Shown here: piece after piece, positions 16,663-32,940 of the stretch
Layout of the letters: each line of letters opens with the position of its first letter
How positions within the stretch are numbered: the first letter of the stretch is position 1
Source: a virus
Virus genome (UHGV): UHGV-0137877
Strand: one strand, 5' to 3'
Length of the DNA: 40,625 bases
Notes under the pieces: model-generated
Database searches by the model: none
Told to the model about the DNA's origin: nothing
What the model saw: only the letters and a program-made list of their open reading frames with translations
Translations under genes and position numbers: made by a program

Positions 16663-16955
16663 CAGATTACGAAGACGATCAACTGAAAGAAGAAAACGCC
16701 CGTAAGCAACGTGACATGGCACAGCGTGAAATTGATGACATTCGCTTTGTCATGAGCAGTGAACAGGGGCGTCGCGTTGTCTGGTCGGTGCTGGAGAAAG
16801 GCCGGGTGTTTTCCGCTATCTCTCCGATGGATGCTATGGCAATGGCATTTAATGAGGGGCAACGCAATCTGGCGCTGGAACTGTTTCAGCGCGTTATGGC
16901 GCATTGCCCTGAACAGTATTTGAAGATGGCCAAAGAGGCCAGTGAACAGGAGTGA
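16659..16955 (+). CDS. Hypothetical head-module protein
   Basis: 98 aa; start overlaps portal stop (ATGA). Confidence 0.5.
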   Translation: MTDYEDDQLKEENARKQRDMAQREIDDIRFVMSSEQGRRVVWSVLEKGRVFSAISPMDAMAMAFNEGQRNLALELFQRVMAHCPEQYLKMAKEASEQE

Positions 16956-16957
16956 TC

Positions 16958-17653
16958 ATGAATTTATTTGAGCGTTTGCTGTATCGCCGTCTTTGCAATG
17001 AGCAACCAGTCGATGGTGGAGCAGCTCCGGCTGCGTCAGAACCGTCAGCGCCTGCAGGTGATAACCCTGCTCCAGTTGGTGATCCATCACAACAGGAAGG
17101 TGATAAGCCACAACCTGTTGCTGATGGCGATAAACCTGCTGATGACAAAAAGCCTGAAAACGATAAGCAGGATGAAAAAAAGGACGGCGATAAACCAGAG
17201 GGTGCGCCTGAGAAGTACGAGTTTCAGGCAGCCGAAGGCGTAGAGCTGGATACAGAAGCGTTGAAGGAATTCGAGCCGGTGGCGCGAGAACTTAACCTGA
17301 CCAACGAGCAAGCGCAAAAGCTGGTTGATGCTTATCCGAAGATTCTGGCAGGTGTTCAGCAGCGCCAGGCAGAAGCCTGGCAGAAAACAACCGAGCAGTG
17401 GGCTGCGGATGTAAAAGCTGACAAAGAAATCGGTGGCGACAAGTTGATTTCTAACCTTAGCGCCGCACAGCGTGCGCTTGACCAGTTCGGGACACCTGAA
17501 CTCAAAGAATATCTGAACACCACCGGGCTGGGTAATCACCCTGATCTGGTCAAAACGTTCGTGAAAATTGGAAAGGCGATGTCTGAAGATGGCATGGTCA
17601 CCGGTGGTAATGAAGGCCAGCGTAGTGCGGCCGAAGTGCTCTATGGCAAATAA
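16958..17653 (+). CDS. Scaffolding protein (putative)
   Basis: ORF track 16952..17653; preferred ATG 16958 after CAGGAG; acidic, Pro/Ala/Lys-rich N-terminus; sits between portal and capsid. Confidence 0.5.
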   Translation: MNLFERLLYRRLCNEQPVDGGAAPAASEPSAPAGDNPAPVGDPSQQEGDKPQPVADGDKPADDKKPENDKQDEKKDGDKPEGAPEKYEFQAAEGVELDTEALKEFEPVARELNLTNEQAQKLVDAYPKILAGVQQRQAEAWQKTTEQWAADVKADKEIGGDKLISNLSAAQRALDQFGTPELKEYLNTTGLGNHPDLVKTFVKIGKAMSEDGMVTGGNEGQRSAAEVLYGK

Positions 17654-17667
17654 GAGAGGAAATGACA

Positions 17668-18654
17668 ATGGCTGTTAAAGGCTTAACTGCGCTAACGCTG
17701 GCTGACTGGGGTAAGCGCGTCGATCCAAACGGGAAAGTCGATAAGATTATCGAGCTTCTCGGTCAAACTAACCCGATCCTTCAGGATATGCCTTTTGTCG
17801 AAGGGAACCTTCCTACCGGACACCGAACCACCATTCGTTCTGGTTTACCTTCAGCTACCTGGCGTTTGCTGAACTATGGCGTACAGCCAAGCAAATCAAC
17901 CACAGTGCAGGTAACCGATTCCGTTGGCATGCTGGAAACCTATGCTGAAGTCGATAAGTCACTGGCTGATCTGAACGGCAATACCGCCGAATTCCGCCTG
18001 TCTGAAGACCGCGCATTTATTGAAGCGATGAATCAGCAGATGGCGCAGACGCTGTTTTATGGTGATTCCAGCGTTAACCCTCAGCAGTTTATGGGACTGT
18101 CCTCCCGCTATTCCAGCATGTCTGCGGGTAATGCTCAGAACATCATTGATGCTGGTGGCACGGGTACAGATAACACCTCAATCTGGTTAGTGGTGTGGGG
18201 CGAAAACACCGTGCATGGCATCTTCCCGAAAGGGCAGAAGGCTGGCATCCAGATGGAAGATAAAGGCCAGGTGACACTGGAAGATGCTAATGGCGGCAAG
18301 TACGAAGGCTATCGCACCCATTACAAATGGGACAACGGACTTGCTCTGCGTGACTGGCGTTATGTTGTTCGCATTGCAAATATCGATGTCAGCAATCTTT
18401 CAGAACCTTCCTCTGCCGCAAATATTGCGAAGTTGATGGTTAAAGCACTACATCGCATTCCAAACCGTGGCATGGGCCGCCCGGTGTTCTACATGAACCG
18501 CACTGTAGGCCAGGCTCTTGATCTGCAGTCTCTGGAGAAAACATCTCTGGCTATCAGCGTAAAAGAGACTGAAGGCGAGTGGTGGACTTCATTCCGTGGT
18601 GTACCAATCCGTGAAACTGATGCGCTTCTGGAAACAGAATCCCGCGTGGTGTAA
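17668..18654 (+). CDS. Major capsid protein (putative)
   Basis: ORF track 17662..18654; preferred ATG 17668 after AGAGAGGAA; about 330 aa, directly after the scaffold gene and followed by a hairpin at 18671-18690. Confidence 0.6.
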   Translation: MAVKGLTALTLADWGKRVDPNGKVDKIIELLGQTNPILQDMPFVEGNLPTGHRTTIRSGLPSATWRLLNYGVQPSKSTTVQVTDSVGMLETYAEVDKSLADLNGNTAEFRLSEDRAFIEAMNQQMAQTLFYGDSSVNPQQFMGLSSRYSSMSAGNAQNIIDAGGTGTDNTSIWLVVWGENTVHGIFPKGQKAGIQMEDKGQVTLEDANGGKYEGYRTHYKWDNGLALRDWRYVVRIANIDVSNLSEPSSAANIAKLMVKALHRIPNRGMGRPVFYMNRTVGQALDLQSLEKTSLAISVKETEGEWWTSFRGVPIRETDALLETESRVV

Positions 18655-18705
18655 CGCCTGTTATTAACCTGTGGGTCGTAACAGACCCACTAATGGAGAA
18701 AGAAG

Positions 18706-19143
18706 ATGATCACCGACAAACTGTTGATGTTCTCCGAAGCTCAGGCGGTTACGAATACCGCGGCTTCTACTGACGTAATCGATCTCGGTCCAATTGACGG
18801 AAAACGTCGTGATATCGGCGTGGGTTACCCGCTTGAGTTTTGGGTGCTGGTTAACGAAGCCGCCACGGCAAGTGGTGAGGCAACTGTAAACATCCAGTTG
18901 CAGACGAGTGAGAATAACAGCTCATGGACCACTATTTATGATAGTGGCGCACTGGCAAAGGCCACCCTGACAGCAGGTAAGCGAGTTGTTTCTGCAAAGG
19001 TGCCAGCCGGTGTTCAGCGATATCTGCGTGTTAACTACTCCGTCGCAACTGGCCCACTAACGGCTGGCAAATTCACTGCGGGTATCAATCTTGATGTTGA
19101 TGCCAATACGCCGTATCCGATCCGCTCAAAAGTAACTGGTTAA
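18706..19143 (+). CDS. Possible capsid decoration or minor head protein
   Basis: 145 aa; beta-rich composition; position directly after the capsid gene. Confidence 0.35.
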   Translation: MITDKLLMFSEAQAVTNTAASTDVIDLGPIDGKRRDIGVGYPLEFWVLVNEAATASGEATVNIQLQTSENNSSWTTIYDSGALAKATLTAGKRVVSAKVPAGVQRYLRVNYSVATGPLTAGKFTAGINLDVDANTPYPIRSKVTG

Positions 19144-19153
19144 GGTGATATCG

Positions 19154-19489
19154 ATGTCAGGTGAGAAACCAAGATACCGCGTTCTGCGCCTCTCTCATAT
19201 CCATAACACACTGTGGCCGGAGGGGGCAGAAATCGAATACGAAGGTGAGCCTGGTAGCGCACTGGAACCTGTTAACGATGCAGCCAGACAGGCAAAAGCA
19301 AAGGTAGCAGGAAAGGTGTCTATGGCAGCAACCAGCACCAAAATCATCAACGATGTGTCAGATGATGGTGAACTGGATAAGCTCCGTGAAGAGTACGAAT
19401 TGCTCTTTAACGAGAAGCCACACCATAACGCCAAAGCCGAAACGCTCCGCGAGAAGATCGCAGATAAGCGTAAAGAACTGGGCGTGTAA
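19154..19489 (+). CDS. Hypothetical virion-module protein
   Basis: ORF track 19145..19489; preferred ATG 19154 after AAGGTGA. Confidence 0.45.
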   Translation: MSGEKPRYRVLRLSHIHNTLWPEGAEIEYEGEPGSALEPVNDAARQAKAKVAGKVSMAATSTKIINDVSDDGELDKLREEYELLFNEKPHHNAKAETLREKIADKRKELGV

Positions 19490-19507
19490 GCCTCGCGAAT
19501 CAGACAA

Positions 19508-19527
19508 GGGGCTTCGGCCCCTTTATT
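19508..19527 (+). terminator. Intra-operon rho-independent terminator
   Basis: GGGGC-ttcg-GCCCC followed by TTTATT. Confidence 0.55.
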
Positions 19528-19545
19528 GCAGGAGTATAGAAACTT

Positions 19546-20151
19546 ATGGCCTCTGTAGTAGAGATCTGCAATCGTGCGCTGTCCAATATTGGCAACAGCC
19601 GCAGCATTAACAGCCTGACGGAAGCCAGCAAGGAAGCGGGGGAATGTTCGCTGCACTTTGAGGCCTGCCGTGATGCTGTGCTTTCTGATTTTGACTGGAA
19701 CTTTGCTACCAAACGCGTGGCGCTTGCAGATACGAGCAATCCACCGCCTGACTGGGAATATGCGTATCAGTACCCGTCCGATTGTCTGCGCATTACTGAA
19801 ATTATGCTTCCTGGTGTACGCAATCCAACAGCAGCAATGCGCGTTCAGTACGAAGTAGGTGTAGACACCAACGGAACAGGAAAGTTGATCTACACAGACC
19901 AGCCTCAGGCATGGCTCAAGTATGTCTCTCGCGTTACAGATGTGAACATGTTTGATGCCATTTTTATGGAGGCGTTGGCCTGGCGTCTTGCGGCAGCTAT
20001 TAACATGGCGCTGACTGGGAATGCAGACCTCGGTACGTTTGCCCTCAATATGTACAATCGCGTGATTCTTAGTGCTGGCTCGCATAGCCAGAATGAATCA
20101 CAGGAACCACAGCCACCGGTTGACGAGTTTACCATTGCGAGGTTGTCCTGA
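19546..20151 (+). CDS. Tail tubular protein A / adaptor (T7 gp11-like)
   Basis: 201 aa; N-terminal ICNRALSNIGNSRSINSL...DFDWNF follows the pattern recalled for gp11; immediately upstream of a gp12-sized gene. Confidence 0.55.
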   Translation: MASVVEICNRALSNIGNSRSINSLTEASKEAGECSLHFEACRDAVLSDFDWNFATKRVALADTSNPPPDWEYAYQYPSDCLRITEIMLPGVRNPTAAMRVQYEVGVDTNGTGKLIYTDQPQAWLKYVSRVTDVNMFDAIFMEALAWRLAAAINMALTGNADLGTFALNMYNRVILSAGSHSQNESQEPQPPVDEFTIARLS

Positions 20152-22604
20152 TGGCTATCAGTTGGATCCAGCCCAGCTTTGCCGGTGGTGAGATTGGACC
20201 GTCGTTGTACGGTCGTATCGACATGGCGAAGTACCAGGTGGCATTGCGCAAGTGCGATAACTTTATCGTGCGGCAGTATGGCGGCGTTGAGAGTCGACCT
20301 GGTACGCGTTTTGTCGGTGCCGCCAAATACCCAAATCGGAAATGCCGCCTGATCCCGTTCCAGTTCTCGACGGTTCAGACTTATGCTCTGGAGTTCGGAC
20401 ACCAGTACATGCGCGTTATCAAAGATGGTGCGTTGGTGCTGAACAGCAGCAATGTTATTTATGAAATTGCCACGCCATATACTGAAGCCGATCTGTTCCG
20501 AATTAAATTCACGCAAAGCGCCGACGTGCTTACGCTGGTTCATCCGGCATACCCGCCGAAAGAGTTGCGTCGCTATGCGCATGACAACTGGCAACTGGTT
20601 GATGTGGTAACGAAGAACGGGCCATTTGAAGATATCAATATTGACGAGTCAGTGACGGTTTATGCCAGCGCCAGCACCGGGACAATTACGTTAACGGCAA
20701 GCGCCTCTATTTTTGGCGCGGAGCAGGTAGGCAAATTGTTCTATCTGGAACAGCCTGCAGTGGATTCAGTGCCGGTATGGGAAACCAGTAAGAGTACGTC
20801 GATTGGCGATATTCGCCGTGCAGACAGTAACTACTATCGCGCCGTTACAGCAGGCAAAACAGGTACTTTGCGCCCTTCGCATACAGAAGGCACATCATGG
20901 GATGGCTGGGGCGGATCCGGTGATGATGATACTGGCATTGAGTGGGAATATCTGCACAGTGGTTTTGGCATTGCCCGTATCACTGCTGCAAATGGAACTA
21001 CTGCAACTGCCGAGGTGATTTCCTATATCCCTTCGCAGGTCGTTGGCGAGGATAATGCCAGCTATAAATGGGCTAAATATGCCTGGAACAGTGTTAATGG
21101 TTATCCTGGCACTGTTGTTTATTATCAACAGCGTCTTTACTTCGCCGCATCGACTGCGTTCCCTCAGACTATCTGGGCCAGCCGTACTGGGGATTATAAG
21201 GATTTTGGCAAAAGCAATCCTACGCAGGATGACGATAGAATTATCTACACCTATGCCGGGCGTCAGGTTAATGAGATCCGCCACCTGATTGATGTTGGTT
21301 CGCTGGTGGCGCTGACTTCCGGAGGTGAGTACGTCATCACCGGCGACCAGAACAAAGTGTTAACCCCATCATCATTTGCATTCAGCTCTCAGGGATCAAA
21401 TGGCTCAAGCAACGTCCCACCAATTGCCGTGGCGAATATTGCTCTGTTCGTCCAGGAGAAAGGCAGTGTTGTCCGTGATCTGGCCTATTCATTCGATGTT
21501 GACGGCTATCAGGGGAACGACCTTACTATCCTTGCCAATCATCTTTTTCAGAAGCACAGCATTGTTGACTGGTGCTTCTCTATTGTCCCTTACTCCAGCG
21601 CCTTCTGCATTCGTGATGACGGTAAATTACTGGTGATGACCTATCTGCGTGATCAACAGGTTTTTGCATGGGCACCACAGTCCAGTACCGGAAAATATGA
21701 AAGCACATGCAGTATCAGCGAAGGCAATGAAGATGCGGTGTATTTCGTCGTTAACCGAACCGTTAACGGGCAAACAGTGAGATACATCGAGCGACTGTCC
21801 AGCCGTTTATTTACCAGCGATGAAGATGCTTTCTTTGTTGATTCTGGCCTTAGCTATGATGGAAGAAATACGTCTGACAGAACGATGACCATCACTGGTG
21901 GTTCTGGTGAATGGGATTACCGCGCGGAATATACAATCAGTGTTTCTGGTGGTGCGTACTTCACCAGTAGTGATGTCGGTGCGCAACTACAGTTCCCTTA
22001 TACCGGCGATGAAGTGTCAAAAGAATTACGTTGCGACATTATTTCTGTAACCAGCAATACCGCAGTAGTGGTTCGTGCTAACAGGAACGTCCCGCCATCC
22101 CTCAGGAATGTGGCTACCACAAACTGGCAGATGGCGCGCCGGACATTTGGCGGCTTGTCTCATCTTGAAGGCCAGACCGTAAACATCCTCTCTGATGCGA
22201 ACGTGGAACCACAAAAAGTGGTTTCCGGAGGTGCCGTCACGCTGGAATCACCGGGGGCTGTTGTGCACATCGGCCTGCCAATAACTGCTGAATTCGAAAC
22301 ACTGGATATCAACATTAACGGACAGGAAACGCTGCTGGACAAAAAACAGGTGATCCCGTCCGTTACTCTGGTTGTGAATGCCAGTCGCGGCATCTGGGCG
22401 ACTACGCCCGGCGGTAAATGGTACGAATATCCACAGCGTGAATTCGAGTTCTACGATGATCCTGTTGATGACGCTACCGGAAAAGTAGAAGTGAAACTGG
22501 ACAGTAACTGGGGCAAAAACGGACGTGTAAAAATCCGTCAGCTTGACCCGTTGCCGCTGTCTGTTCTTGCCGTTATTCCTCGCCTTACTGTTGGGGGATT
22601 CTGA
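20151..22604 (+). CDS. Tail tubular protein B / nozzle (T7 gp12-like)
   Basis: 817 aa; size and position match gp12; N-terminal GGEIGPSLYGR. Confidence 0.55.
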   Translation: MAISWIQPSFAGGEIGPSLYGRIDMAKYQVALRKCDNFIVRQYGGVESRPGTRFVGAAKYPNRKCRLIPFQFSTVQTYALEFGHQYMRVIKDGALVLNSSNVIYEIATPYTEADLFRIKFTQSADVLTLVHPAYPPKELRRYAHDNWQLVDVVTKNGPFEDINIDESVTVYASASTGTITLTASASIFGAEQVGKLFYLEQPAVDSVPVWETSKSTSIGDIRRADSNYYRAVTAGKTGTLRPSHTEGTSWDGWGGSGDDDTGIEWEYLHSGFGIARITAANGTTATAEVISYIPSQVVGEDNASYKWAKYAWNSVNGYPGTVVYYQQRLYFAASTAFPQTIWASRTGDYKDFGKSNPTQDDDRIIYTYAGRQVNEIRHLIDVGSLVALTSGGEYVITGDQNKVLTPSSFAFSSQGSNGSSNVPPIAVANIALFVQEKGSVVRDLAYSFDVDGYQGNDLTILANHLFQKHSIVDWCFSIVPYSSAFCIRDDGKLLVMTYLRDQQVFAWAPQSSTGKYESTCSISEGNEDAVYFVVNRTVNGQTVRYIERLSSRLFTSDEDAFFVDSGLSYDGRNTSDRTMTITGGSGEWDYRAEYTISVSGGAYFTSSDVGAQLQFPYTGDEVSKELRCDIISVTSNTAVVVRANRNVPPSLRNVATTNWQMARRTFGGLSHLEGQTVNILSDANVEPQKVVSGGAVTLESPGAVVHIGLPITAEFETLDININGQETLLDKKQVIPSVTLVVNASRGIWATTPGGKWYEYPQREFEFYDDPVDDATGKVEVKLDSNWGKNGRVKIRQLDPLPLSVLAVIPRLTVGGF

Positions 22605-23068
22605 TGATCGACGTTCAAATTATTCCCGCTACCGAAGAGCATCTTCAGATGATTTTGCCGGATGTTCGTCAGGCTGATATTGACGAACTGTATGCGGTAT
22701 CGCTGATGACTACCGAAGATGCGCTGCGTGTTGGTCTGCGTACTGCGACTATGGCCTGGTCAGGATTTGCGAACGGAGAACTGGTAACCATGTTTGGCGT
22801 ATCTCCGGCGTCAATGATCGGTGGCAATGGTACGCCCTGGCTGGTCGGAACCAGCCGTATCGAAAAATATCAGAAGACATTTCTTCGCCACTGCCGCCCT
22901 GTATTGCAGCAGATGCTGGCAGTTTATCCGCGCCTGGAAAACTATGTCGACGAGCGAAACCATGTTGCCAAAGCATGGCTGCACTGGCTTGGATTCAGGC
23001 TTGAAGAAGCCGCGCCTTATGGTGCTCTTGGTCTTAATTTCCACAGATTTCACATGGAGAGAAAATAA
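22604..23068 (+). CDS. Hypothetical virion protein (gp13 position)
   Basis: 154 aa; assigned by position only. Confidence 0.4.
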   Translation: MIDVQIIPATEEHLQMILPDVRQADIDELYAVSLMTTEDALRVGLRTATMAWSGFANGELVTMFGVSPASMIGGNGTPWLVGTSRIEKYQKTFLRHCRPVLQQMLAVYPRLENYVDERNHVAKAWLHWLGFRLEEAAPYGALGLNFHRFHMERK

Positions 23069-23613
23069 TGTGCGATCCGGTTATTGCTGGTGGCGCAATG
23101 CTCGCCATGAGTGGCATTCAGGCATACACCCAGTACCAACAGGGAAAGTATGCCTCGAAGGTTGCAGAAGCGAACGCAGATATAGCCACAGCTCAGGCAA
23201 ATGATGCAATAAACAGGGGTAACGCTGAAGCTGAGCAACGGCGCAGAGAGACCCGACAGCGGCTTGGTACACAGGCGGCGACAATGGGGGCTACCGGCGC
23301 CGATTTATCTACAGGTAACGCGCTGGATATATTTGGTGACACTGCTCAGTTTGGCGCTCTTGATTCGCTGACGACGGTGAATAACGCGCAACGCGAGGCT
23401 TACGGTTATCAGGTTCAGGCTGCCAACTATAAAGCAGAAGCCAGTTCAGCCCGTAAACAGGGGAATGTGGGAGCAGCAACAACATTGCTCACTGCGCCTC
23501 TGAAGGCATACGGTGCGTACCAGATGTTTGGTGGGACGTGGAGTCCGTTTACTCAAAGCACCCCTGCGCCAATCGGGGCAGCAGCAGGAACCAGATTACC
23601 CGGAGGATTATAA
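23068..23613 (+). CDS. Internal virion/ejection protein (gp14-like)
   Basis: 181 aa; starts MC, with Ala/Gln-rich N-terminus as in gp14-type proteins. Confidence 0.5.
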   Translation: MCDPVIAGGAMLAMSGIQAYTQYQQGKYASKVAEANADIATAQANDAINRGNAEAEQRRRETRQRLGTQAATMGATGADLSTGNALDIFGDTAQFGALDSLTTVNNAQREAYGYQVQAANYKAEASSARKQGNVGAATTLLTAPLKAYGAYQMFGGTWSPFTQSTPAPIGAAAGTRLPGGL

Positions 23614-26126
23614 TGCCAGTCGTACCAACAGTATCCGGCCGTCAGGTTCAGAGCCGTGGAGTTCAGTCAGCAGGCTTGCAGACGTTTTCTCAGCCAGGTA
23701 TTGGTGATGCTTTTGTTCGGGCAGGGACAGAGGCAATTGATGTTTTTGGTCAGGCAAAACAGCGTGCCAATATCGCTCTGGCTCAGGAGGCATCTCTTAA
23801 CCTCAGTCAGATAAGCAGTGATCTGCTGAATAATCCTGAAACAGGATTGCTTAACCTGAAAGGGAAAAATGCTATTGGAAAAGGTCAGGAGTATACGCAG
23901 CAGTTTGATGCTCAGGTCGAACAACTGGCTATGTCGCTGCCGGATGAACAGGCTCGTAATGCTTTCATGCAGCAGGCGCAGCAGCAGCGCATTCAGTTCA
24001 CTACGCAGGCAGGGCGGCACGAGATAGGGCAAATAAATGCCTACGAAGAAGGCCAGTTTCAGGCTACGCTGCTGAACAATGGTAAAAATGCCGCAGCATT
24101 GTATGGCGACAACGTCGCATACGTATTGGCTAATAAGCAAACTTTCCAGCAAATTGAGGATTACGGCATTGCACATGGCTGGAGTGACGAGCAAATCCAG
24201 GCCAAGAAAATCGAGTTTAAAGAAGCAACAGCAAAAGCAACTGCTCAAAATGCTATTGGAGCAAACTATCTTCAGGTAAGACAGCAAAACGGCGAGTTAA
24301 GCGATACTGCTGCTGGATCTCGCCGTGCTGTAGCAGATAGTGGCTCTTCCGATCGTACCCGCGGTATACGCAACAATAACCCCGGCAATCTTGAATACAG
24401 CAAAACTAATCCGTGGGTTGGGCAGACTGGTGATGATGGTCGCTTTGCCAAATTCGAAACCCCTGAACACGGTATTCGTGCATTAGGGCGGAACCTGATG
24501 TCGTATCAGCGGCAGGGTATTGATACCGTCAGCGAGATAATTAATCGCTGGGCACCGCCTACTGATAAAAATGACACTATGTCGTATATCAAAGCAGTGT
24601 GCGAACAACTTGGCGTTTCTGCTGATGAGCCTCTCGATGCATCAAATCCTGATACCCTGAAGGCGCTTTGTGCAGCCATTATCCATCATGAAAACGGTAG
24701 CCAGCCATACAGTGATCAGCAGTTAACTGCAGGTGTTAGTGCTGCGCTGGGGCTTTCTCAGCTACCGACAAAAAATAAACGTTATACCGGTGTAGCCTGG
24801 TTCGATGCTTTAAGTGAATCAGATCAGGCCAGCGTGTTGCGACAGACTGATGCACTAGCCAGACAACAGCAGGCTGAATATAAAACGATGCTCGACAGCC
24901 GGGTTCGCGATGCGACGGCTGCGTATATGCGTGGCGTTGAATTTCCTAACCCACCTGGTGAGGATGATTTTATTGCAGCTTATGGAGTCAGAGAAGGAAA
25001 CCTGCGATATACCGAGTTTAAGAATACGCAGATCGCCGGACAGTATATCGGCTCTTTCCGCAACATGCCGACAAGCAGCATTACAGCATATGTTGAGCAA
25101 TTACGCCCGGATACTGGTGAAACAGGGGAGGGGTATGCGGCACGCGCAGCTCTTTATGACAACGTTGTTTCGGCTGCAAATCAGGTGATAAAGCAGCGGC
25201 AGTCGGATCCTGTGCAGTTCTCTCTTGCCTCCGGACAGACAAAGCCTATCGACATGAGCAATAAGGATAACTTTGGACAGAGCGTTGCCTTGCGTGCCGC
25301 TCAGGTCAGTGACCTTGCTAAGTCATATGGCACTCCACTGACGTTCTTTTCCAAAGACGAGGCCAATCAGATCGGTGTTTTCTTTCGTGATGCTCCAGTT
25401 TCCCAACAGGCAGCATATCTCGATACCATCAGGCAGAGCACTGGTGGTGGGCAGGTGTATATGTCAGCACTACAGCAGATCAGTGCCAACGCTCCATCTG
25501 CTGCCGTTGCCGGGATACTGATGGACAAGCCTGGTGGTATTTTGGCAGAAAAAAACTGGTTTAATCCGGATGTTTCCGTGTCTCCTGAAACCGCTGCGCA
25601 GACAATTCTTGCTGGCGCGGCGGCTCGTAAAGGTACTGATGATGCGAAAGGTATTCCGATGCCTAAAGATGCTGATCTTCGCCTTGAGTTTTCTGACATG
25701 GTGAAGGATGCATTTGCTGGTGATGCTCAGGGGGCATCAATGGCATACGAGATCGCAAAGGACTATTACGCTGGTGTGATGGCGAAAAAAGGCGTGATAT
25801 CAGGTGAAATTGACACTGATATCTGGAAACAGGCTGTTAACGTAGCTACAGGTGGCGTGCATGACTATAACGGAATGGGGAATGTCCTTTTGCCGTGGGG
25901 AATGTCTGCAGAGCAATTCGATAAGCAGGTTAATCAGGCTTGGAATGAACAAGTTGTCGGCACTGGGATAAAAACACCGCCTGGTCAGTATGGTTTGCAA
26001 AGTTACGGCGATAGTCAGTATCTGGTGAAACTTGGTACTGGTTATCTGCTGAAAGATGATGGTTCTCCTGTTGTTCTTGATCTGACACAGAAGCGTCAGA
26101 GATTCTCCGGAGATATTCCGCAATGA
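23613..26126 (+). CDS. Internal virion/ejection protein (gp15-like)
   Basis: ORF track 23538..26126; preferred ATG 23613 after GGAGG; 837 aa; contains RGIRNNNPGNL...AIIHHENG segment. Confidence 0.5.
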   Translation: MPVVPTVSGRQVQSRGVQSAGLQTFSQPGIGDAFVRAGTEAIDVFGQAKQRANIALAQEASLNLSQISSDLLNNPETGLLNLKGKNAIGKGQEYTQQFDAQVEQLAMSLPDEQARNAFMQQAQQQRIQFTTQAGRHEIGQINAYEEGQFQATLLNNGKNAAALYGDNVAYVLANKQTFQQIEDYGIAHGWSDEQIQAKKIEFKEATAKATAQNAIGANYLQVRQQNGELSDTAAGSRRAVADSGSSDRTRGIRNNNPGNLEYSKTNPWVGQTGDDGRFAKFETPEHGIRALGRNLMSYQRQGIDTVSEIINRWAPPTDKNDTMSYIKAVCEQLGVSADEPLDASNPDTLKALCAAIIHHENGSQPYSDQQLTAGVSAALGLSQLPTKNKRYTGVAWFDALSESDQASVLRQTDALARQQQAEYKTMLDSRVRDATAAYMRGVEFPNPPGEDDFIAAYGVREGNLRYTEFKNTQIAGQYIGSFRNMPTSSITAYVEQLRPDTGETGEGYAARAALYDNVVSAANQVIKQRQSDPVQFSLASGQTKPIDMSNKDNFGQSVALRAAQVSDLAKSYGTPLTFFSKDEANQIGVFFRDAPVSQQAAYLDTIRQSTGGGQVYMSALQQISANAPSAAVAGILMDKPGGILAEKNWFNPDVSVSPETAAQTILAGAAARKGTDDAKGIPMPKDADLRLEFSDMVKDAFAGDAQGASMAYEIAKDYYAGVMAKKGVISGEIDTDIWKQAVNVATGGVHDYNGMGNVLLPWGMSAEQFDKQVNQAWNEQVVGTGIKTPPGQYGLQSYGDSQYLVKLGTGYLLKDDGSPVVLDLTQKRQRFSGDIPQ

Positions 26127-27925
26127 GTTACTTTGGCCTTAATCCAGTAAACCAGAATCAGCAGCTTGACGAAGCAGCATCAAATCCAGCGGGCTTTAAC
26201 AGCGATGTTGGTTTTTTCGACAATGCTGTAGGAGCGGCATTGTCTGGTTTGTACTCCGGGCTGGTGGCAAAGCCAGACCAGTTGCTATGGGCAGGAATGG
26301 ATAAAATCGTATCCCCGATTGCTCAGTTTGTTAACGAAAACACCTCGTTCAATGATACTTCAGTTTCATACATTGCCGAGCAGAGAAAACTAGCAGAGCA
26401 GCAGGTTAAGCGGTTGACGCCTGATGCCGCGACAACCGGAACCGCCGGGCAGGTTCTTTATGGGTTGTTCGATATGGGCGGACAGGCTGTTGTCGGTTCA
26501 GCATTAGCAGGGCCGATTGGTGGCGCAGCCGCAGTTACCTCTCTTCAGGGATTCTCTGAATTTGAGCGCCTGTCCGCTCAGGGTGTTGATTTCAGGACGG
26601 CGCAGGAAGCGGGATTAGTGCAGGGTATTACTGCTGGTGCCGGAACACTGATCCCTATGAGCCTCGGGTTACGTGCTGGTGGTGCGCTGGCGGAAGGTGT
26701 GGCGGCCCAGCTTGCGCGGACGGGTGAAAGTTCAGTGCGACGCGCCGCAGCAACAGCAGTACGTGCAACGCCAGATATTGCCTATGCCACAGGTACAAAT
26801 ATTGCGTTCGGTATGGCACAGCGTGGGCTTACTGCAAAAACGCTTCGTGATGGTGGCTATAGCGAAATGGCTAACCAGTATGATGTGTTGGATCGACAGG
26901 CAATTGCTATTGATGCTGTTCTTGGGGTGGCGTTTGGTGGTGTCGGCAGATTTATGAACTCTCGCGGCGAGTCTACAAGCGCACCAAATTTTGCACCAGT
27001 TGATATCGATGCTGCACTGGCGGCGAATGCCGCTCATCATGCTGAAATTGATATTGCTCCCGGCGTTCCGATCAACGTGCTTTCGCGTAATTCGCACATT
27101 CAGGCTCTGCGAAAAGCCATGTCTGATGTTAGCCAGGGGAGACCTGTAGACGTTGCCAGCATTGTTGAGTCTGCATCTTTCAGTGAAATTCCTGGGCGCA
27201 AGAGTCTGCTGTCTCAGGCAGTTAATGAGGCTCTGTCATCTGTAGATGATGGAGTAACGGCGCGCGCTATAGAAAATCGGTTGCTTGAAGAACAGGCCGC
27301 GCAGCTTTTGCCGCGTGGCGATAGACAGGTTTACCAGTCTGAAATCGCTAATAGCCAACGAATTATTGAAAATCTCACTGAACAGCGCGCACAAATTCTT
27401 GCAGAAGAGCCAACCGGTAGCGGTAAGGCTTTATCTCGTGCTCGATCAGATAAACAGGCCAGACTTCGCGATATTGACCAACGAATCCGGCAGGCACAAG
27501 AACGCTTGGAATTTTCCCGTAACGCGTTGGCACCGCATGAGCCTGGCGGTCAGTTTTTTGAAGCTCGAGCAGAACTGGCACGGCGACAGCAGGCAGAAAG
27601 TGAACTTAATGCTCAGGCTGTTTCATTCTATAAAACAGCAGAGGTCAGGACGCCAGACGAAGTAGCTCCTTTTGAGCCCGGTAAGATATTGCAACAGACA
27701 GAACAAAAAATGATGTCAGATCAGGCAGGAGATATTGATCTGCGCATAGCTGAAGACTCGCTGCTTGAATCACCTGACATGATAATCACCGTGCTGGATG
27801 ATGATGGTAATCCACAATCGCGCAGTGCGCGTGAAGTACTGGATGAAACGAACAGGGAAAGTGAGCAGGCAATACAGGATTCCAGCCTGTTTGATGTCGC
27901 TGTGGCGTGTTTCTTGAGAGGTTAA
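26123..27925 (+). CDS. Internal virion/ejection protein (gp16-like, first part)
   Basis: 600 aa; start overlaps upstream stop; Gly/Ala-rich N-terminus, coiled-coil C-terminus. Confidence 0.45.
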   Translation: MSYFGLNPVNQNQQLDEAASNPAGFNSDVGFFDNAVGAALSGLYSGLVAKPDQLLWAGMDKIVSPIAQFVNENTSFNDTSVSYIAEQRKLAEQQVKRLTPDAATTGTAGQVLYGLFDMGGQAVVGSALAGPIGGAAAVTSLQGFSEFERLSAQGVDFRTAQEAGLVQGITAGAGTLIPMSLGLRAGGALAEGVAAQLARTGESSVRRAAATAVRATPDIAYATGTNIAFGMAQRGLTAKTLRDGGYSEMANQYDVLDRQAIAIDAVLGVAFGGVGRFMNSRGESTSAPNFAPVDIDAALAANAAHHAEIDIAPGVPINVLSRNSHIQALRKAMSDVSQGRPVDVASIVESASFSEIPGRKSLLSQAVNEALSSVDDGVTARAIENRLLEEQAAQLLPRGDRQVYQSEIANSQRIIENLTEQRAQILAEEPTGSGKALSRARSDKQARLRDIDQRIRQAQERLEFSRNALAPHEPGGQFFEARAELARRQQAESELNAQAVSFYKTAEVRTPDEVAPFEPGKILQQTEQKMMSDQAGDIDLRIAEDSLLESPDMIITVLDDDGNPQSRSAREVLDETNRESEQAIQDSSLFDVAVACFLRG

Positions 27926-27930
27926 ATTAA

Positions 27931-30405
27931 ATGAGACAGGAATGTATACAAGCGGTCCAGCAGGCGGCGCAGCGCACGTTAACGGCGCGAGAAATACAGA
28001 ACATTGAAGACCGCATTTATCGCAATATGCGCTCCATTGCTCGTGATGACCCTATGTCGTGGCGACAACTTTCCGAGTCAGAGCGGCTGTATCGTGCAGC
28101 ACAATTGGCATCTGAAGAATTACAGCGAGAAGCGGCATTAAAGAAACGTCGTGTGGCTCTTACTATAGCCGCACGTCAGAGATTGGATAAATTTATCAAT
28201 AGCTATCAAGGGGCTGATGGGAAACTTGGCGCTCTTAACCGTACTATTGCTTTTAATGCAGACGGTAAATCGAATTTCCTCTCTGTTGAGTCCAGAACAA
28301 AAGCCACTCGTGATTATGCATTGAGTCAATTGCAGGAGGCATTCGAAGCAGTTGATCCTCGCTTTTTTGGCCTGTTTGAAGATGAAGCGGGCGTGCGTGA
28401 CCTGGTATATGAAATGCGAGGGCAAAATACTGGCAATGCTAAAGCAAGAAAAGGTGCTAAGGCGTGGAGAGAAGTGACAGATCTACTCCGCCGCCGGTTT
28501 AATGATGCTGGTGGGGACATTGGCTATCTCGAAAACTGGGGGATCCCTCAACATCATTCTATGGAAAAGGTTGGGGCGGTATCAAAAGATAAATGGGTTA
28601 GCGATGTTATAGGTAAGCTGGATCGCAAATATTATACCCGAGCCGATGGACAACTGATGAACGATGCCGAGTTGTCTGCATTTCTTGGAGAGGCTTATAA
28701 CACGATCGCTACTGGTGGGCTGAATAAGCTTACTGATACCGGAATGCGAATTTCCGGCGCACGTGCTAACCGTGGTAATGCATCACGACAGATACATTTC
28801 AAAGATGCAGATTCCTATCTGCAATATCAGCAACTTTATGGCGATCGCTCTCTATGGGAAATCATGGTCGGTCACCTGGAAGGTATCAGTAAAGATATTG
28901 CACTGGTGGAAACATATGGCCCAAACCCCGATCATGTTTTCCGCTCCCTTCTTGATCTGGTTAAGGCAGAAACGGCAACAGCTAACCCGAGTAAAACCGG
29001 TAAAGTCGAGCGGCTGGCGAACAACACAGAGAATCTGTACAACTTTATTTCTGGAAAGACACAGCCTGTAGCGAATCCGCACATCGCGCGATGGTCTGAC
29101 AATATCCGCAACTGGCTGGTTGCCAGCAGACTCGGATCCGCGTTGCTGTCATCGTTCTCTGATCTTGGAACCATGTATCTGTCTGCGAAGGTTACCAACC
29201 TTCCAATGAACCAGTTATTCCGCAACCAGCTTGAAGCTATGGACCCAACGAACCGTACAGAACTTGCGCGGGCGCGCCGCGCTGGTCTGGCGATGGAATC
29301 TCTACTTGGCAGCGTTAACCGCTGGGCGATGGATAATATGGGGCCGTCAGTGTCTCGTTGGGCGGCAACGGCCGTAATGCGTGCCAGTGGGCTTACAGCA
29401 TGGTCAGATGCGCACAAGCGCGCCTATGGCGTAACCATGATGGGAAGCCTGGGAGAAGTAGTGTCACGGACACCAGACCTTCGTAGCCTCGATGACTCTG
29501 ATTTTCGTATCCTGAAAAGCAAAGGGATTACTGACACAGACTGGAGCGTATGGAAGCTGGCGCAACAGGAGGACTGGGGGAACGGTAATAATACGATGCT
29601 GACACCGGAAAGCATTATGCGTATCCCTGATTCAGCAGTTAAACATCTTGGTGAGCCTGAACGAGTGAAATTTGAGGCAATGCGTAAACTGCTCGGTGCC
29701 GTAACTGAAGAAGTTGATATGGCTGTTATTACACCGGGAGCACGTGAGCAACTGATAACCGGTTCTGGTATTCAGCGTGGAACATGGAAAGGTGAATTAA
29801 CGAGAAGTGTTTTCCTGTTTAAATCGTTCCCTATCTCGGTTGTTATGCGTCACTGGTCACGCGCTATGGGTATGCCGTCTGCTGGTGGGCGTGCGGCATA
29901 TATTGCGACGTTTATTGCCAGTACGACCATTCTTGGCGCTTTGTCGCAGCAACTTAACGACCTTGCGTCTGGTCGTAATCCTCGAGAGATGACAGGAGAA
30001 GGTGCCGCAAAATTCTGGCTTGGTGCTCTACTGAAAGGTGGTGGCCTTGGCCTTTACGGTGACTTTTTATTGTCAGATCACACTAGGTACGGAAGCGGCG
30101 CGCTGGCGTCGATGCTTGGCCCGGTAGCTGGTCTGGTTGATGACGTAGTGAAGATTGCTCAGGGCATACCGTTAAATGCTGTGGAAGGGAAGAGTGAGCA
30201 GACTGGTGGTGATCTGGTGAAGCTGGGGAAAGGTTTGATGCCAGGTGCGAATCTCTGGTACTTAAAGGCGGCTCTCGATCATATGATCTTTAACCAGATG
30301 CAGGAGTATTTTTCACCAGGCTATTTGCGTAAAATGGAGCAACGTTCGAAGAAAGAGTTTAATCAGACATACTGGTGGCGACCTCAGGATGTCACTCCGC
30401 AATAA
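27931..30405 (+). CDS. Internal virion/ejection protein (gp16-like, second part)
   Basis: 824 aa; GAGAGG RBS; last large gene of the ejection block. Confidence 0.45.
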   Translation: MRQECIQAVQQAAQRTLTAREIQNIEDRIYRNMRSIARDDPMSWRQLSESERLYRAAQLASEELQREAALKKRRVALTIAARQRLDKFINSYQGADGKLGALNRTIAFNADGKSNFLSVESRTKATRDYALSQLQEAFEAVDPRFFGLFEDEAGVRDLVYEMRGQNTGNAKARKGAKAWREVTDLLRRRFNDAGGDIGYLENWGIPQHHSMEKVGAVSKDKWVSDVIGKLDRKYYTRADGQLMNDAELSAFLGEAYNTIATGGLNKLTDTGMRISGARANRGNASRQIHFKDADSYLQYQQLYGDRSLWEIMVGHLEGISKDIALVETYGPNPDHVFRSLLDLVKAETATANPSKTGKVERLANNTENLYNFISGKTQPVANPHIARWSDNIRNWLVASRLGSALLSSFSDLGTMYLSAKVTNLPMNQLFRNQLEAMDPTNRTELARARRAGLAMESLLGSVNRWAMDNMGPSVSRWAATAVMRASGLTAWSDAHKRAYGVTMMGSLGEVVSRTPDLRSLDDSDFRILKSKGITDTDWSVWKLAQQEDWGNGNNTMLTPESIMRIPDSAVKHLGEPERVKFEAMRKLLGAVTEEVDMAVITPGAREQLITGSGIQRGTWKGELTRSVFLFKSFPISVVMRHWSRAMGMPSAGGRAAYIATFIASTTILGALSQQLNDLASGRNPREMTGEGAAKFWLGALLKGGGLGLYGDFLLSDHTRYGSGALASMLGPVAGLVDDVVKIAQGIPLNAVEGKSEQTGGDLVKLGKGLMPGANLWYLKAALDHMIFNQMQEYFSPGYLRKMEQRSKKEFNQTYWWRPQDVTPQ

Positions 30406-30414
30406 GGAAGTGTT

Positions 30415-30588
30415 GTGTTTTTAATTATTTTGAGTGTGATAATTTCTGGTGGGTTGTTATTTATTGACCGCTACAAATATTTTCTTAACCCTCAGACTCA
30501 AGCTATTTGCTGGTTCATCTTTGTTGTGCAGGGAATAGTTCTTGTTGCAAGCCTTATTGAGGGGAGGCCTCTGATTTTTACTGGGTAA
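30415..30588 (+). CDS. Small hydrophobic protein (57 aa, GTG start; not in ORF track)
   Basis: GTG at 30415 just after AAGGAAG; two predicted transmembrane segments; open frame to TAA at 30586-30588. Confidence 0.25.
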   Translation: MFLIILSVIISGGLLFIDRYKYFLNPQTQAICWFIFVVQGIVLVASLIEGRPLIFTG

Positions 30589-30600
30589 ATAGGTGACTAC

Positions 30601-30897
30601 ATGCAAGCGATAGGATTCATTGTTTATATCGTCGTTGGCCTTTTTCAGTTGGCAGCAATTATGGCTGGGCTTGAATCATGGTGGGGATTGCACTGGATAA
30701 TTGCAGCCCCCATTGCTTTCATCGTGAGCTATATTCCATTTGTTGGAGCGATTGTTGGTATGGTTGGCGCTGTGGATGTATGGCGGTGGGAGTGGTGGCA
30801 GGCTGGCCTTCTCTTCTTTGGTGGGATCATCTTTGCTATTGTCTGCGGTGGAATGTCATCATTTTTCGAATGGCTATCATTCAGAAAAGGGACGTGA
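30601..30897 (+). CDS. Trp-rich integral membrane protein
   Basis: 98 aa; AGGTGA RBS; three or four hydrophobic helices; last gene of the late operon. Confidence 0.55.
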   Translation: MQAIGFIVYIVVGLFQLAAIMAGLESWWGLHWIIAAPIAFIVSYIPFVGAIVGMVGAVDVWRWEWWQAGLLFFGGIIFAIVCGGMSSFFEWLSFRKGT

Positions 30898-30905
30898 CAT
30901 GTCAC

Positions 30906-30930
30906 AGGCCGCTTTCGCGGCCTTGTTTTT
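30906..30930 (+). terminator. Rho-independent terminator ending the late operon
   Basis: AGGCCGC-tttc-GCGGCCT followed by TGTTTTT. Confidence 0.65.
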
Positions 30931-30970
30931 AACGAATGCCACCGCCACCCGGGCGGGAATCCGCAGACAC

Positions 30971-30992
30971 AAAAAAGCCCGCAGAGCGGGCT
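30971..30992 (-). terminator. Rho-independent terminator after the DUF2335-like gene
   Basis: AGCCCGC-aga-GCGGGCT followed by a U6 run on the minus strand; overlaps the stop codon. Confidence 0.6.
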
Positions 30993-31540
30993 TACTTTTC
31001 TTCAGGTTTATTGTCTTCAGATTTCTTCTTGATGCTTGGTTTTTGTCTAAGAACGAAAATACCAGCCACTGCAACAACTGTACCGATCACTGTGCCTGCT
31101 AGAACTTCATGACCTGTTAAACCTAATAATGTTGCACAAGCTACTGTAAAAATAGTTGCACTCAGGCCAAACCACTGCCCACGTTTATCTCTATTAATAG
31201 CCCCGTCAAGTGCCTTTTCCTCCATTTTCTGGCGGTGAGCAAACTCCTTCTCCGTCAGCTGGAAGATGCGTTCGGGGGCATCAGGTAAAATATCCTGATA
31301 CCCGCGAAGCAGATAGGGGGGAGGAAGCGGACCCTGAAACGCATGGTGAGCGACAACTATCTCCTGAATTTCAGGGCGATCAAGAACTCTTGTGAAGGCA
31401 TCTGGGTGTTGAATGATCTCGTTACTTAGCCCTTCCTCAACTTCCTCGAACTCAGTTTCTTCGTTATCACTTGGTTGCCCAATAGATTTTTGCATATTTG
31501 TCGAAGGACATTCCTTTAGCTTCTGGTTTTCCTCTTGCAT
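30992..31540 (-). CDS. DUF2335-like membrane protein
   Basis: 182 aa (167 if it starts at the internal ATG 31495); acidic N-terminus, PPPYLL...ERIFQLTEKEFAHRQ core, two C-terminal transmembrane helices, Lys-rich tail. Confidence 0.55.
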   Translation of the reverse strand: MQEENQKLKECPSTNMQKSIGQPSDNEETEFEEVEEGLSNEIIQHPDAFTRVLDRPEIQEIVVAHHAFQGPLPPPYLLRGYQDILPDAPERIFQLTEKEFAHRQKMEEKALDGAINRDKRGQWFGLSATIFTVACATLLGLTGHEVLAGTVIGTVVAVAGIFVLRQKPSIKKKSEDNKPEEK

Positions 31541-31793
31541 TTGAGTTTTTCCCTGTCACTATTGCCCATTTTCCGCCAGCAGGCGCTGCAATTTTTTTTC
31601 CGTTCTTTACTATATATTCAGCATAAACACGATTTTCTGACCGTCTGAGATCGTCTCCGACCATATTCATGTCTCTTGATATAACTTTGACGACAGAGTC
31701 TCTGTTTAAAGCCTTGGCATAGTTGGAGCCAGGAACGATACCCAAAGGGGTGCCAGACTCTATAGCCAGCTCCTTGACATATCTTCTGCTCAT
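31467..31793 (-). CDS. Small basic protein, overlaps the DUF2335-like gene
   Basis: 108 aa from ATG 31793 (GAGG RBS 6 nt upstream); overlaps the next ORF by 29-74 nt in another frame; own promoter with operator. Confidence 0.4.
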   Translation of the reverse strand: MSRRYVKELAIESGTPLGIVPGSNYAKALNRDSVVKVISRDMNMVGDDLRRSENRVYAEYIVKNGKKIAAPAGGKWAIVTGKNSNARGKPEAKGMSFDKYAKIYWATK

Positions 31794-31813
31794 ATGAACC
31801 TCAACCAATCGAC

Positions 31814-31847
31814 TTTACCAATCGGGTAATTTTAAACATGAGTATAA
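31814..31847 (-). promoter_or_regulatory. Promoter with operator site for the 108-aa/DUF2335-like pair
   Basis: Perfect TTACC-aatcg-GGTAA (31814-31828) 14 bp downstream of a minus-strand TATACT -10-like hexamer (31842-31847). Confidence 0.5.
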
Positions 31848-31914
31848 TGCTTTTAACTGCAACGAGTGTAAACAATTATTGATAATTGTAGGCACATCCC
31901 TGTGCCGCCGCCCG

Positions 31915-32625
31915 TCAGAAGAACCCTGCCTTGTCGTTGATGTACTCCGCGTGAGTCTGGATATCACGCAGGCATTTGCTCACACCAACGATGTAGCAGA
32001 ACATGCTGGTCAGCTCCGCCGCCGCGCCCGATACATCGTGCCCGTCTTCCTGCAACTGGTTCAGCAAATTCATCAGCAGTGAGTTCTCCGTCAGGCCGAG
32101 AACACCAGACGGCGAATGAATCAGGCTACGGTAGCCGGGCTTCAGTGGGGCGCTGTAGGTTTTGTTCTCTATCTTCATTGCCTGCATCACTGCTGATGCT
32201 GTGGCGTTGGCTACCTGGTCGGCAACCATCTTTATGCGTTCTTCCTGCGGGAGCGAGTTTTTAATGTAACTTCCGGTGCGGCGGATCTGAGGAAGAACCT
32301 CACCTGTAACCCATTTACGAAAGCGGTAGGGGATAGTGCCTGGTGTCACCGCATCGCGGCAGCGGAGGATCAGTGTGTAGAGGCCTGACTCGGAGATGAT
32401 GTTGATCTCTTTTACTCGGCTGTCAAAAATTGCACGATGTTCATGCCCTATGTTGAACATAGACCTTTCATCATCATCCAGTTTTTCAAGTGCTTGGGTG
32501 ACGTTTTGGATACGCAGCGCACTACAAACGTCTTGGGCTACAAACCATGGTTGGCCATCGATAATGATGGAACGGATAGGGTTAACAGATTCAAATTTGA
32601 AGATGGCAGTTTGAGCATTAGCCAT
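31915..32625 (-). CDS. Antirepressor (BRO-N domain plus Ant-type C-terminal domain)
   Basis: ORF track 31915..32640; preferred ATG 32625 after GGAGAT; N-terminal FKFESVNPIRSIIIDGQPWFVAQDVCSAL is a classic BRO-N start. Confidence 0.8.
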   Translation of the reverse strand: MANAQTAIFKFESVNPIRSIIIDGQPWFVAQDVCSALRIQNVTQALEKLDDDERSMFNIGHEHRAIFDSRVKEINIISESGLYTLILRCRDAVTPGTIPYRFRKWVTGEVLPQIRRTGSYIKNSLPQEERIKMVADQVANATASAVMQAMKIENKTYSAPLKPGYRSLIHSPSGVLGLTENSLLMNLLNQLQEDGHDVSGAAAELTSMFCYIVGVSKCLRDIQTHAEYINDKAGFF

Positions 32626-32781
32626 GGTGGTTATCTCCACTTAGTGATTTTAATCACCACCGCAACGCCAATTACTGGTGGTGAACTGGACAAGGTTGGC
32701 GTACCGGCCTAAGTGGTACCGGCGTCCTTTCGGACCCCTGCCCAGCCCACCATAATTCGGATATAGCTGTGCTTAACGCAT

Positions 32782-32803
32782 AAAAAAACCACGTCTGGCG
32801 TGG
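32782..32803 (-). terminator. Rho-independent terminator between the two antirepressor genes
   Basis: CCACG-ccaga-CGTGG followed by a U7 run on the minus strand. Confidence 0.6.
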
Positions 32804-32894
32804 TATGCGCCACTTAGTAACTCGGGACGCCAATCCCGGCACTGGATTTTGCCAGTGCTCAATTACTATGGCACAAGAGGAGTGCGATGTAAAT

Positions 32895-32909
32895 TTACCG
32901 CAAAGGTAA
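32895..32909. promoter_or_regulatory. Operator site (TTACC-gcaaa-GGTAA) downstream of the small antirepressor gene
   Basis: Perfect 15-bp palindrome of the operator family. Confidence 0.5.
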
Positions 32910-32940
32910 ATATAAGCACTCCACTTGGTAATTGCAAACC

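Follow-up and report, generated by a model that had tools for sequence, protein, structure and literature searches.

A Uetakevirus-type prophage of Escherichia coli carries a T7-like tail and genome-injection operon with a candidate two-chain equivalent of gp16

How does a temperate phage that lacks an RNA polymerase of its own build a T7-like injection machine, and which of its proteins take the place of T7 gp16? We asked this for the UHGV virus genome UHGV-0137877, a stretch of 40,625 nucleotides (hereafter the window). The initial annotation had placed gp11-, gp12-, gp14- and gp15-like genes at positions 19546-30405, followed by two large open reading frames (ORFs) of 600 and 824 amino acids where T7 has a single gp16. 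The ORF listing of the window agrees with these coordinates and sizes. Seven plus-strand ORFs, here called p1 to p7, span 19546-30405 exactly, and one of them, the 154-amino-acid gp13-like gene p3, had been absent from that earlier list. As all junctions between p1 and p7 overlap or are 5 nucleotides apart (TGATG, TAATG, ATGA), the seven genes form a single operon. With good confidence we identify the region as the operon for tail and genome injection in a temperate podophage of the Uetakevirus type (phiV10/epsilon15-like) that lies beside the Escherichia coli gene yfgI, with the protein roles proposed below. Judged from natural gene fusions and a conserved cysteine pair, the products of p6 and p7 behave as one unit.

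By profile and predicted fold, the C-terminal half of T7 gp16 has a true homologue in p7 (27931-30405, plus strand, 824 amino acids), a protein of the class known as internal virion protein D or tetrameric ejection protein. Initial homologue searches gave only sequences of 98-100% identity, and queries were then made with alignments of distant phage homologues. The module was collected from 11 other phages with a full-length p7 homologue (Pseudomonas MPK9 and Ab31, Yersinia YeP5, E. coli vB_EcoM_APEC, Burkholderia KL4, Ralstonia RpY1, Acinetobacter 4316, Vibrio VP5 and K298, Pelagibacter Skadi-1 and Liberibacter SC1). These phages share the seven-gene order, with p7 identity as low as ~21%, and the family alignments built from them were compared by hhalign with profiles of proteins from T7, SP6, phiKMV, KP34 and P-SSP7. 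A direct phmmer match to T7, SP6 or phiKMV was found for no module protein. At the profile level, p7 residues 172-798 aligned with residues ~747-1308 of T7 gp16 (hhalign 97.2%, expect value (E) 3.4e-11, 543 columns). Both proteins carry a common motif, GELTRSVFLFKSFPI in the window and GALGKMVMQFKSFTI in T7, which is followed in each by a hydrophobic helix; the homology includes the QFKSF motif, and the helix lies ~170 residues before the C-terminus. An AlphaFold2 model of p7, made from a 69-sequence alignment (30-53% identity to the window protein), was confident and all-helical, with a predicted local distance difference test (pLDDT) of 84 and a predicted template modelling score (pTM) of 0.86. 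When searched by Foldseek against predicted viral structures (BFVD), this model found its own family first and then gp16-class proteins of Autographiviridae (1260-1340 amino acids, E 1e-5 to 1e-9, query TM 0.4-0.58). Among these were the 'internal core protein' of Ralstonia RSB3, proteins of Pseudomonas Ab05 and LKA1, the 'internal virion protein D' of Providencia PSTRCR_120 and Erwinia pEp_SNUABM_12 and the 'internal protein D' of Bordetella BB8. The model also weakly matched the solved PhiM1 gp48, and PDB profile searches with two deeper alignments, the 69-sequence one among them, found no ejection protein. By position, p7 is the counterpart of epsilon15 gp17.

The gene before it, p6 (26123-27925, plus strand, 600 amino acids), encodes a candidate second large ejection protein, which we propose as the N-terminal chain of a two-chain gp16 equivalent. 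The protein matches phrog_1145 and nothing in PDB, Pfam or NCBIfam. It is all-helical, with Gly/Ala-rich hydrophobic stretches at residues 123-141 and 260-278 and a long C-terminal helix predicted at 569-599. A weak signal towards the N-terminal region of gp16 (E 0.03-0.05) vanished with a five-sequence gp16 profile and was discarded. The view of the initial annotation that two large ORFs stand in the place of gp16 is supported: p7 is a gp16 homologue by the evidence above, and p6 and p7 behave as one unit. p6 by itself has no detectable gp16 similarity. Structure prediction, which had been proposed as a check, was divided, with a confident p7 model and gp16-class fold matches but a poor p6 model (AlphaFold2, pLDDT 51.5). 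T7 gp16 is one polypeptide with an N-terminal lytic transglycosylase, whereas neither p6 nor p7 has a hydrolase domain and the window carries a hydrolase of a different type inside p5. T7 has two large ejection proteins and the window has three. Three large proteins follow the gp14-like gene in all 12 phages, so this arrangement is no peculiarity of the window. The three large genes go by 'hypothetical protein' in the E. coli genomes of RefSeq, and some NCBI records label the 600-amino-acid protein 'keratin'.

The link between p6 and p7 became apparent from their cysteines. Each of the 12 phages has a single cysteine in p6, placed 5-10 residues before the C-terminus, and a single one in p7, at residue 4-12. 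In the window these are Cys596 of p6 (codon 27908-27910, plus strand), 5 residues from the C-terminus (...VAVACFLRG), and Cys5 of p7 (codon 27943-27945, plus strand; MRQEC...). The single C-terminal cysteine is present in 239 of 240 p6 homologues, the exception being a fragment. Close homologues of p7 show the N-terminal pattern in 116 of 120 cases; three truncated gene calls and a protein carrying one additional cysteine make up the rest. A p7 profile search of 1.84 billion cluster representatives yielded 6662 family members, and 139 of the best 150 of these have the N-terminal cysteine. The remaining 11 are seven truncated gene calls and four long proteins (P0390, P0391, P0406 and P0461; 1707-2913 amino acids) that have no cysteine whatever. 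Because these four join an N-terminal p6-like part (E 1e-22 to 1e-43) to a near-complete C-terminal p7-like part in one chain, they are natural p6-p7 fusions. Both cysteines are thus kept in separate chains and are missing in fused ones. Otherwise p4 to p7 and T7-type gp14 to gp16 are essentially devoid of cysteine: there is none in the positional orthologues of p5 from the 11 other phages, nor in gp15 and gp16 of five Autographiviridae. External tail proteins have an ordinary cysteine content. We also noted that the annotated start of vB_EcoM_APEC p7 is set too far downstream, and that beginning instead at the GTG at 5561 gives back the N-terminus MRKEC.

Our search found a single solved structure with this gene order and cysteine pattern, the cyanophage A4 layout. 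Cryo-electron microscopy of A4 showed that the C-terminal helix of gp27 is inserted in gp26, with a Cys1715-Cys5 disulfide (PMC12002296, PNAS 2025). In the genome of Anabaena phage A-4L, gp27 (1717 amino acids) has Cys1715 as its single cysteine and gp26 (1114 amino acids, MSKHC...) has Cys5. As in the window, gp29, gp28, gp27 and gp26 of A4/A-4L (PDB 9K2V) follow the adaptor and nozzle, the first large protein contains the hydrolase, a single C-terminal cysteine is found in the protein after it and the last has Cys5. The large A4 proteins (1058, 1717 and 1114 amino acids) are far bigger than p5 to p7, and A4 is lytic and has its own DNA polymerase. The core of A4 shows fivefold symmetry. Of the A4 proteins only the nozzle matched the window module (94%), with no similarity to p5, p6 or p7 in sequence-profile comparisons, and in comparisons with p6/p7 and T7 profiles no A4 protein other than the adaptor and nozzle gave a match. 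The main text of the A4 paper is silent on conservation of the cysteine pair in other phages (PMC12002296). In the A-4L RefSeq record (L100, 16766-25269) gp26 is named 'tail fiber protein; host specificity' and gp27 'tail protein'; cryo-electron microscopy puts both in the capsid pre-ejectosome (PMC12002296).

Taken together, the cysteine pattern, the fusions and the A4 disulfide make a disulfide-tethered split gp16 the most likely reading of p6 and p7. We infer the disulfide from the pattern and gene order shared with A4, not from demonstrated homology, and Cys596 and Cys5 of this phage are probably bonded by that analogy. The broader proposal, that a split gp16 joined head to tail through Cys596-Cys5 is general in many T7-tailed podophages without RNA polymerase, is one that we favor by a modest degree.

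The genes upstream of p6 place this pair in a T7-type context. p1 (19546-20151, plus strand, 201 amino acids) is predicted to be the head-to-tail adaptor of the T7 gp11 or 'tail tubular protein A' type and is expected to form a dodecamer. It matched gp11 (hhalign 93.6%, E 2e-7), the connector of Cobetia marina phage Carin-1 (PDB 8ck1_E, E 8e-26), orf17 of LME-1 (9efk_T, 12 chains, E 3e-5) and phrog_394 'tail protein' (E 6e-87), and no Pfam family. p2 (20151-22604, plus strand, 817 amino acids) is the putative T7 gp12-type tail nozzle, for which a hexamer is expected; it matched gp12 (hhalign 98.3%, E 2e-14, 398 columns), the 'Tail Nozzle' 8ck1_A over its full length (E 4e-220) and LME-1 orf18 (9efk_M, 6 chains, E 9e-16). 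PDB 8CK1 was identified as Carin-1 indirectly, through the LME-1 paper. The solved adaptors and nozzles of Carin-1 (8CK1) and LME-1 (9EFK) therefore match p1 and p2 by sequence, while the ejection proteins of these two phages gave no PDB sequence match to p5, p6 or p7. p3 (22604-23068, plus strand, 154 amino acids), a gp13-like internal virion or assembly protein, matched gp13 (hhalign 96.2%, E 2e-9, 134 columns) and phrog_308 'internal virion protein' (E 9e-63) and stayed below the cut-off of Pfam Phage_T7_Gp13 (PF11090; E 0.088, 13.6 bits vs 25). On these comparisons p3 is a distant gp13 homologue and not a Pfam member. p4 (23068-23613, plus strand, 181 amino acids) is a gp14-like ejection protein, gp14 being the outer-membrane pore former of T7. 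It matched gp14 at 55-79% in hhalign (E 1e-4 at 55%) and, over residues 1-160, Pfam PF24072 T7_gp14 (E 2.5e-7, 31.2 bits vs a cut-off of 27). p4 is the sole module protein above the cut-off in Pfam, and NCBIfam recognised no module protein. The lone cysteine of p4 is at residue 2 (MC..., codon 23071-23073), as in T7 gp14, P-SSP7 gp14 and YeP5 p4; most other gp14-like members have no cysteine at all. All off-diagonal hhalign pairs scored <1%, an internal control that leaves a clean diagonal to T7. Profile searches of p1 to p4 thus led to T7-type assignments, and the gp11-, gp12- and gp14-like genes of the initial annotation were confirmed at the profile level.

The same cannot be said of the gp15-like gene. 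p5 is encoded by an ORF at 23538/23613-26126 (plus strand), which gives 862 amino acids, or 837 when counted from the start codon of phiV10, the ATG at 23613. It matched phrog_992 (E 0), and its hhalign comparisons with gp15 and gp16 profiles stayed below 1%. What connects p5 to gp15 is its size and its position after the gp14-like gene, and by this analogy p5 may serve as the first large ejection protein. A peptidoglycan hydrolase domain with the motif RGIRNNNPGN is inserted at residues ~249-403 (24357-24821, plus strand); it matched residues 3-151 of Gp29 (PDB 9vvp_L, 1295 amino acids, E 2e-40) and the endolysin 7q47 (E 4e-19), and no Pfam family. For p5, p6 and p7 together, searches of Pfam, NCBIfam and PDB sequences yielded only this domain. 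A match of p5 residues 209-415 to phrog_2276 'tail length tape measure protein' reflects the shared hydrolase domain and not a siphovirus tail, and the tape-measure reading was rejected. The window-type hydrolase was found in none of the 11 sampled relatives, several of which have other domains instead: an SLT domain in KL4 p6 (302-397), a lysozyme/transglycosylase in Acinetobacter 4316 p6 (327-407), GH108 in RpY1 p5 (257-332) and a phage lysozyme at the C-terminus of Skadi p5. Since different hydrolases sit at different sites, the wall-cutting enzyme appears to be a swappable cassette in p5 or p6. In vB_EcoM_APEC p6 (L088, 2946-5558), a ddrB-like ParB domain (Pfam PF18763, E 2e-26, residues 533-658) is found in place of a wall hydrolase, a surprising cargo for an ejection protein. 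Just after p7, a short plus-strand ORF of ~57 codons with a GTG start (30415 onward) encodes a very hydrophobic peptide (VFLIILSVIISGGLLF...), the positional match of PhiV10p21, 'putative integral membrane protein'.

To which phage does this operon belong? All 10,860 bases of 19546-30405 have 96.7-97.9% nucleotide identity to HEMP4, ZX5, phiv142-3, phiV10, PAS61 and O157 typing phages, and 74-80% to Enterobacter phage Tyrion and Salmonella epsilon15-type phages. By convention, the ICTV sets a genus at ~70% nucleotide similarity over the whole genome. The counterparts in phiV10 are PhiV10p14-p20, the same seven genes in the same order, which RefSeq names as two tail proteins, two internal virion proteins, a head protein, a hypothetical protein and a virion structural protein. 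phiV10 relatives resemble the window in their temperate life style and lambda-like early genes, and p7 has 99.2% protein identity between them. Where phiV10 has an O157 tail fibre, the window has a K1 endosialidase tailspike. This tailspike (33395-36514, plus strand, 1039 amino acids) is a K1-capsule endosialidase with Pfam matches to End_beta_propel (E 1e-233), End_tail_spike, End_N_terminal and the Peptidase_S74 chaperone. Among its top matches in chromosomes are O1:K1:H7 strains of avian pathogenic E. coli (APEC).

The comparison with epsilon15-like modules, also proposed in the initial annotation, showed the same gene order at the identity given above. The genes of epsilon15 itself, gp11-gp17, run in the order of the window with ~74% DNA identity from p1 to the start of p5. 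DNA similarity ends inside p5, and the p6 and p7 counterparts are strongly diverged. As p7 has 94% identity in Salmonella SPN1S, SPC32N and PAT1 and ~28% in the epsilon15-like VB_ST_E15, these sequences suggest that the distal half of the injection module has been exchanged within Uetakevirus. The VB_ST_E15 record (OR757455.1, L083) has only 32 features annotated, and at 5567-10001 its gp15/gp16 equivalents are split into overlapping ORFs of 511, 491, 222 and 523 amino acids, which suggests frameshift errors. Table 1 of PMC8954989 lists gp11 (229 amino acids), gp12 (499) and gp13 (708) as ejection proteins of 'Epsilon 15'. These sizes are unlike those of epsilon15-type genes (201/817/154 amino acids in the window and 201/825/154 in VB_ST_E15); the row looks P22-type and probably refers to another phage. 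With T7, the window shares the functional order and profile homology to gp11-gp14 and the C-terminal half of gp16. T7 has its own RNA polymerase, and the window has none within a temperate genome.

The left part of the window supports the temperate assignment. Positions 1-20000 are covered to 72-82% at ~97-98% identity by ZX5, HEMP4, PAS61 and TL-2011b. TL-2011b, HEMP4 and ZX5 are the nearest relatives here, with TL-2011b closest to the early region. This part encodes an MT-A70 methylase, RecT, exonuclease VIII, a helix-turn-helix (HTH) repressor, a DnaT-domain initiator, lambda P, terminase, portal, protease and capsid. Lambdoid early genes were recognised by Pfam (Phage_lambda_P, E 2e-55; a DnaT domain; the HTH_3 repressor; a Bro-N antirepressor), and RecT and exonuclease VIII were called through identity to TL-2011b. 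At 30000-40625 coverage falls to 31-66%, lowered in part by ~1.9 kb of host DNA. The integrase end, ~1.6 kb of prophage, falls outside the window. From ~38700 to 40625 the sequence is host chromosome with the E. coli core genes yfgI (DUF5384; 38830-39369, minus strand), yfgH (a glycine-zipper lipoprotein; 39385-39903, minus strand) and yfgG, and the right junction of the prophage comes directly after Rz-type lysis genes. All three core genes occur in 5426 of 5426 complete E. coli genomes; their presence at the right end identifies the window as a prophage joined to host DNA on its right-hand side. Of the 5426 genomes, 324 contain the p6-p7 segment, and its annotation there goes no further than hypothetical proteins.

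A phage RNA polymerase is indeed missing, as the initial annotation had claimed. The only ORFs of at least 400 amino acids in the window are terminase, portal, p2, p5, p6, p7 and the endosialidase tailspike, and a tblastn search of the window with 730 amino acids of the KP34 polymerase gave a best E of 0.06 on the wrong strand. The ~1.6 kb of prophage beyond the window is too short for an RNA polymerase gene. The element hence lacks the phage-encoded single-subunit RNA polymerase that marks Autographiviridae. Judged by its structural module, it is a member of the long-known genus Uetakevirus, and RefSeq phage records already annotate the module, though sparsely; this finding is ordinary and already known.

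How might the seven proteins work together? The p1 dodecamer and the p2 hexamer would build a short tail of the T7 type on the portal, and p3 to p7 would be packed in the capsid as an internal core above it. In epsilon15, an ordered internal core above the portal has been assigned to gp17 and a tube has been described during infection (review PMC5850374). Adsorption through the tailspike would lead to expulsion of the core, whose proteins would leave via the nozzle ahead of the DNA and then rebuild a channel across the envelope. p4, being gp14-like, may insert in the outer membrane, and p5 may supply the peptidoglycan hydrolase that opens the wall. p6 and p7 would jointly do the job of T7 gp16 and carry the channel on to the inner membrane and across it. 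The C-terminal helix of p6 most likely docks into p7, where the Cys596-Cys5 disulfide would lock it, such that both proteins could exit the capsid as one head-to-tail chain.

Several observations weigh against this model. p5 has no detectable similarity to T7 gp15 or gp16, and neither has p6 in hhalign, so that the role of p6 also follows from position and size. The AlphaFold2 model of p6 is unreliable, and A4 gp27 and gp26 gave no hmmsearch match to p6 and p7 and hhalign values <5%. One could argue that p6 and p7 are functionally independent and that their lone cysteines serve homo-oligomeric disulfide rings, metal binding or acyl modification. The p6/p7 family has no solved structure, and the lone Cys2 of some p4/gp14 proteins has no known partner, which would fit such a view, as do the poor p6 model and the missing homology to the A4 pair. 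We nevertheless hold it to be unlikely, because both cysteines are lost together precisely on chain fusion (four of four fusions), because in all phages examined they lie at the ends where the two neighbouring genes abut and because the sole solved system with such a pattern has an inter-chain disulfide. Alternatively, p5, p6 and p7 might be an external adsorption apparatus, a tail hub with a central tube, and not internal ejection proteins at all. Attachment of epsilon15 gp17 reportedly needed gp15 and gp16, although a dependence of gp17 on gp16 is equally consistent with a p6-p7 tether. In the summary given in PMC12391199, genetics places epsilon15 gp15, gp16 and gp17 in the tail hub or tube, and the tail packaging and injection device is assigned to gp4, gp20, gp15 and gp17/16 (Guichard et al. 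2013). Against this stands the report of epsilon15 gp17 as an internal core (PMC5850374). Moreover, p4 to p7 avoid cysteine like proteins that have to unfold and traverse a channel. Adaptor and nozzle are already covered by p1 and p2, whose solved homologues are present in 12 and 6 copies, and p7 has its homologue in gp16, which belongs to the internal core in T7 and PhiM1. Because the tail is explained by p1 and p2, and p7 is homologous to gp16, we regard the tail-hub explanation as very improbable.

The initial annotation had seen in the locus temperate early functions combined, as a mosaic, with a lytic-type injection machine, and in its strongest form this would mean that a lytic T7-like structural module moved recently into a lambdoid temperate genome. 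The two halves of the element do have different relatives: the early region shares ~97% DNA identity with lambdoid and Shiga toxin (Stx) phage sequences and window positions 1-20000 match 669 phage records, many of them Stx-converting, while the structural module matches only 38. The mosaic reading misleads and claims too much: the lambda-like early genes are real, but the combination defines the long-known Uetakevirus and the similarity to T7 is seen at the profile level only, so nothing indicates a recent transfer from a lytic phage. The lack of any direct phmmer match to T7, SP6 or phiKMV speaks for ancient divergence. In Burkholderia KL4, Pseudomonas Ab31, Ralstonia RpY1 and Acinetobacter 4316 the module is accompanied by integrases, att sites and repressors, and G+C content is even across the phage part. 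The Legionella element LME-1, which is temperate, is reported to have a T7-like virion and the T7 structural gene order without sequence similarity to T7 (PMC12407071). The mosaicism that we see is exchange of early genes among temperate phages and not import of a lytic module, which makes a recent import extremely improbable.

What, then, does a split and tethered gp16 mean for these phages? The region as such re-identifies a known phage genus and hence matters little, and T7-like virions in temperate elements without RNA polymerase have already been described, for instance LME-1. The added value lies in the assignment of the 824-amino-acid protein to gp16 and in the evidence that a very large group of phages has an equivalent of gp16 that is split and probably tethered by a disulfide. 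If true, this group would include Uetakevirus, BcepC6B/KL4-like, VP2/VP5-like, Pelagibacter and Liberibacter phages, in which the tether has previously gone unremarked, and lineages with fused genes would have dispensed with both cysteines. A redox-sensitive joint that passes from the oxidising periplasm to the reducing cytoplasm could then act as a built-in release step. The split gp16 would thereby offer a concrete and testable view of the way in which temperate phages of a widespread class assemble their injection channel.

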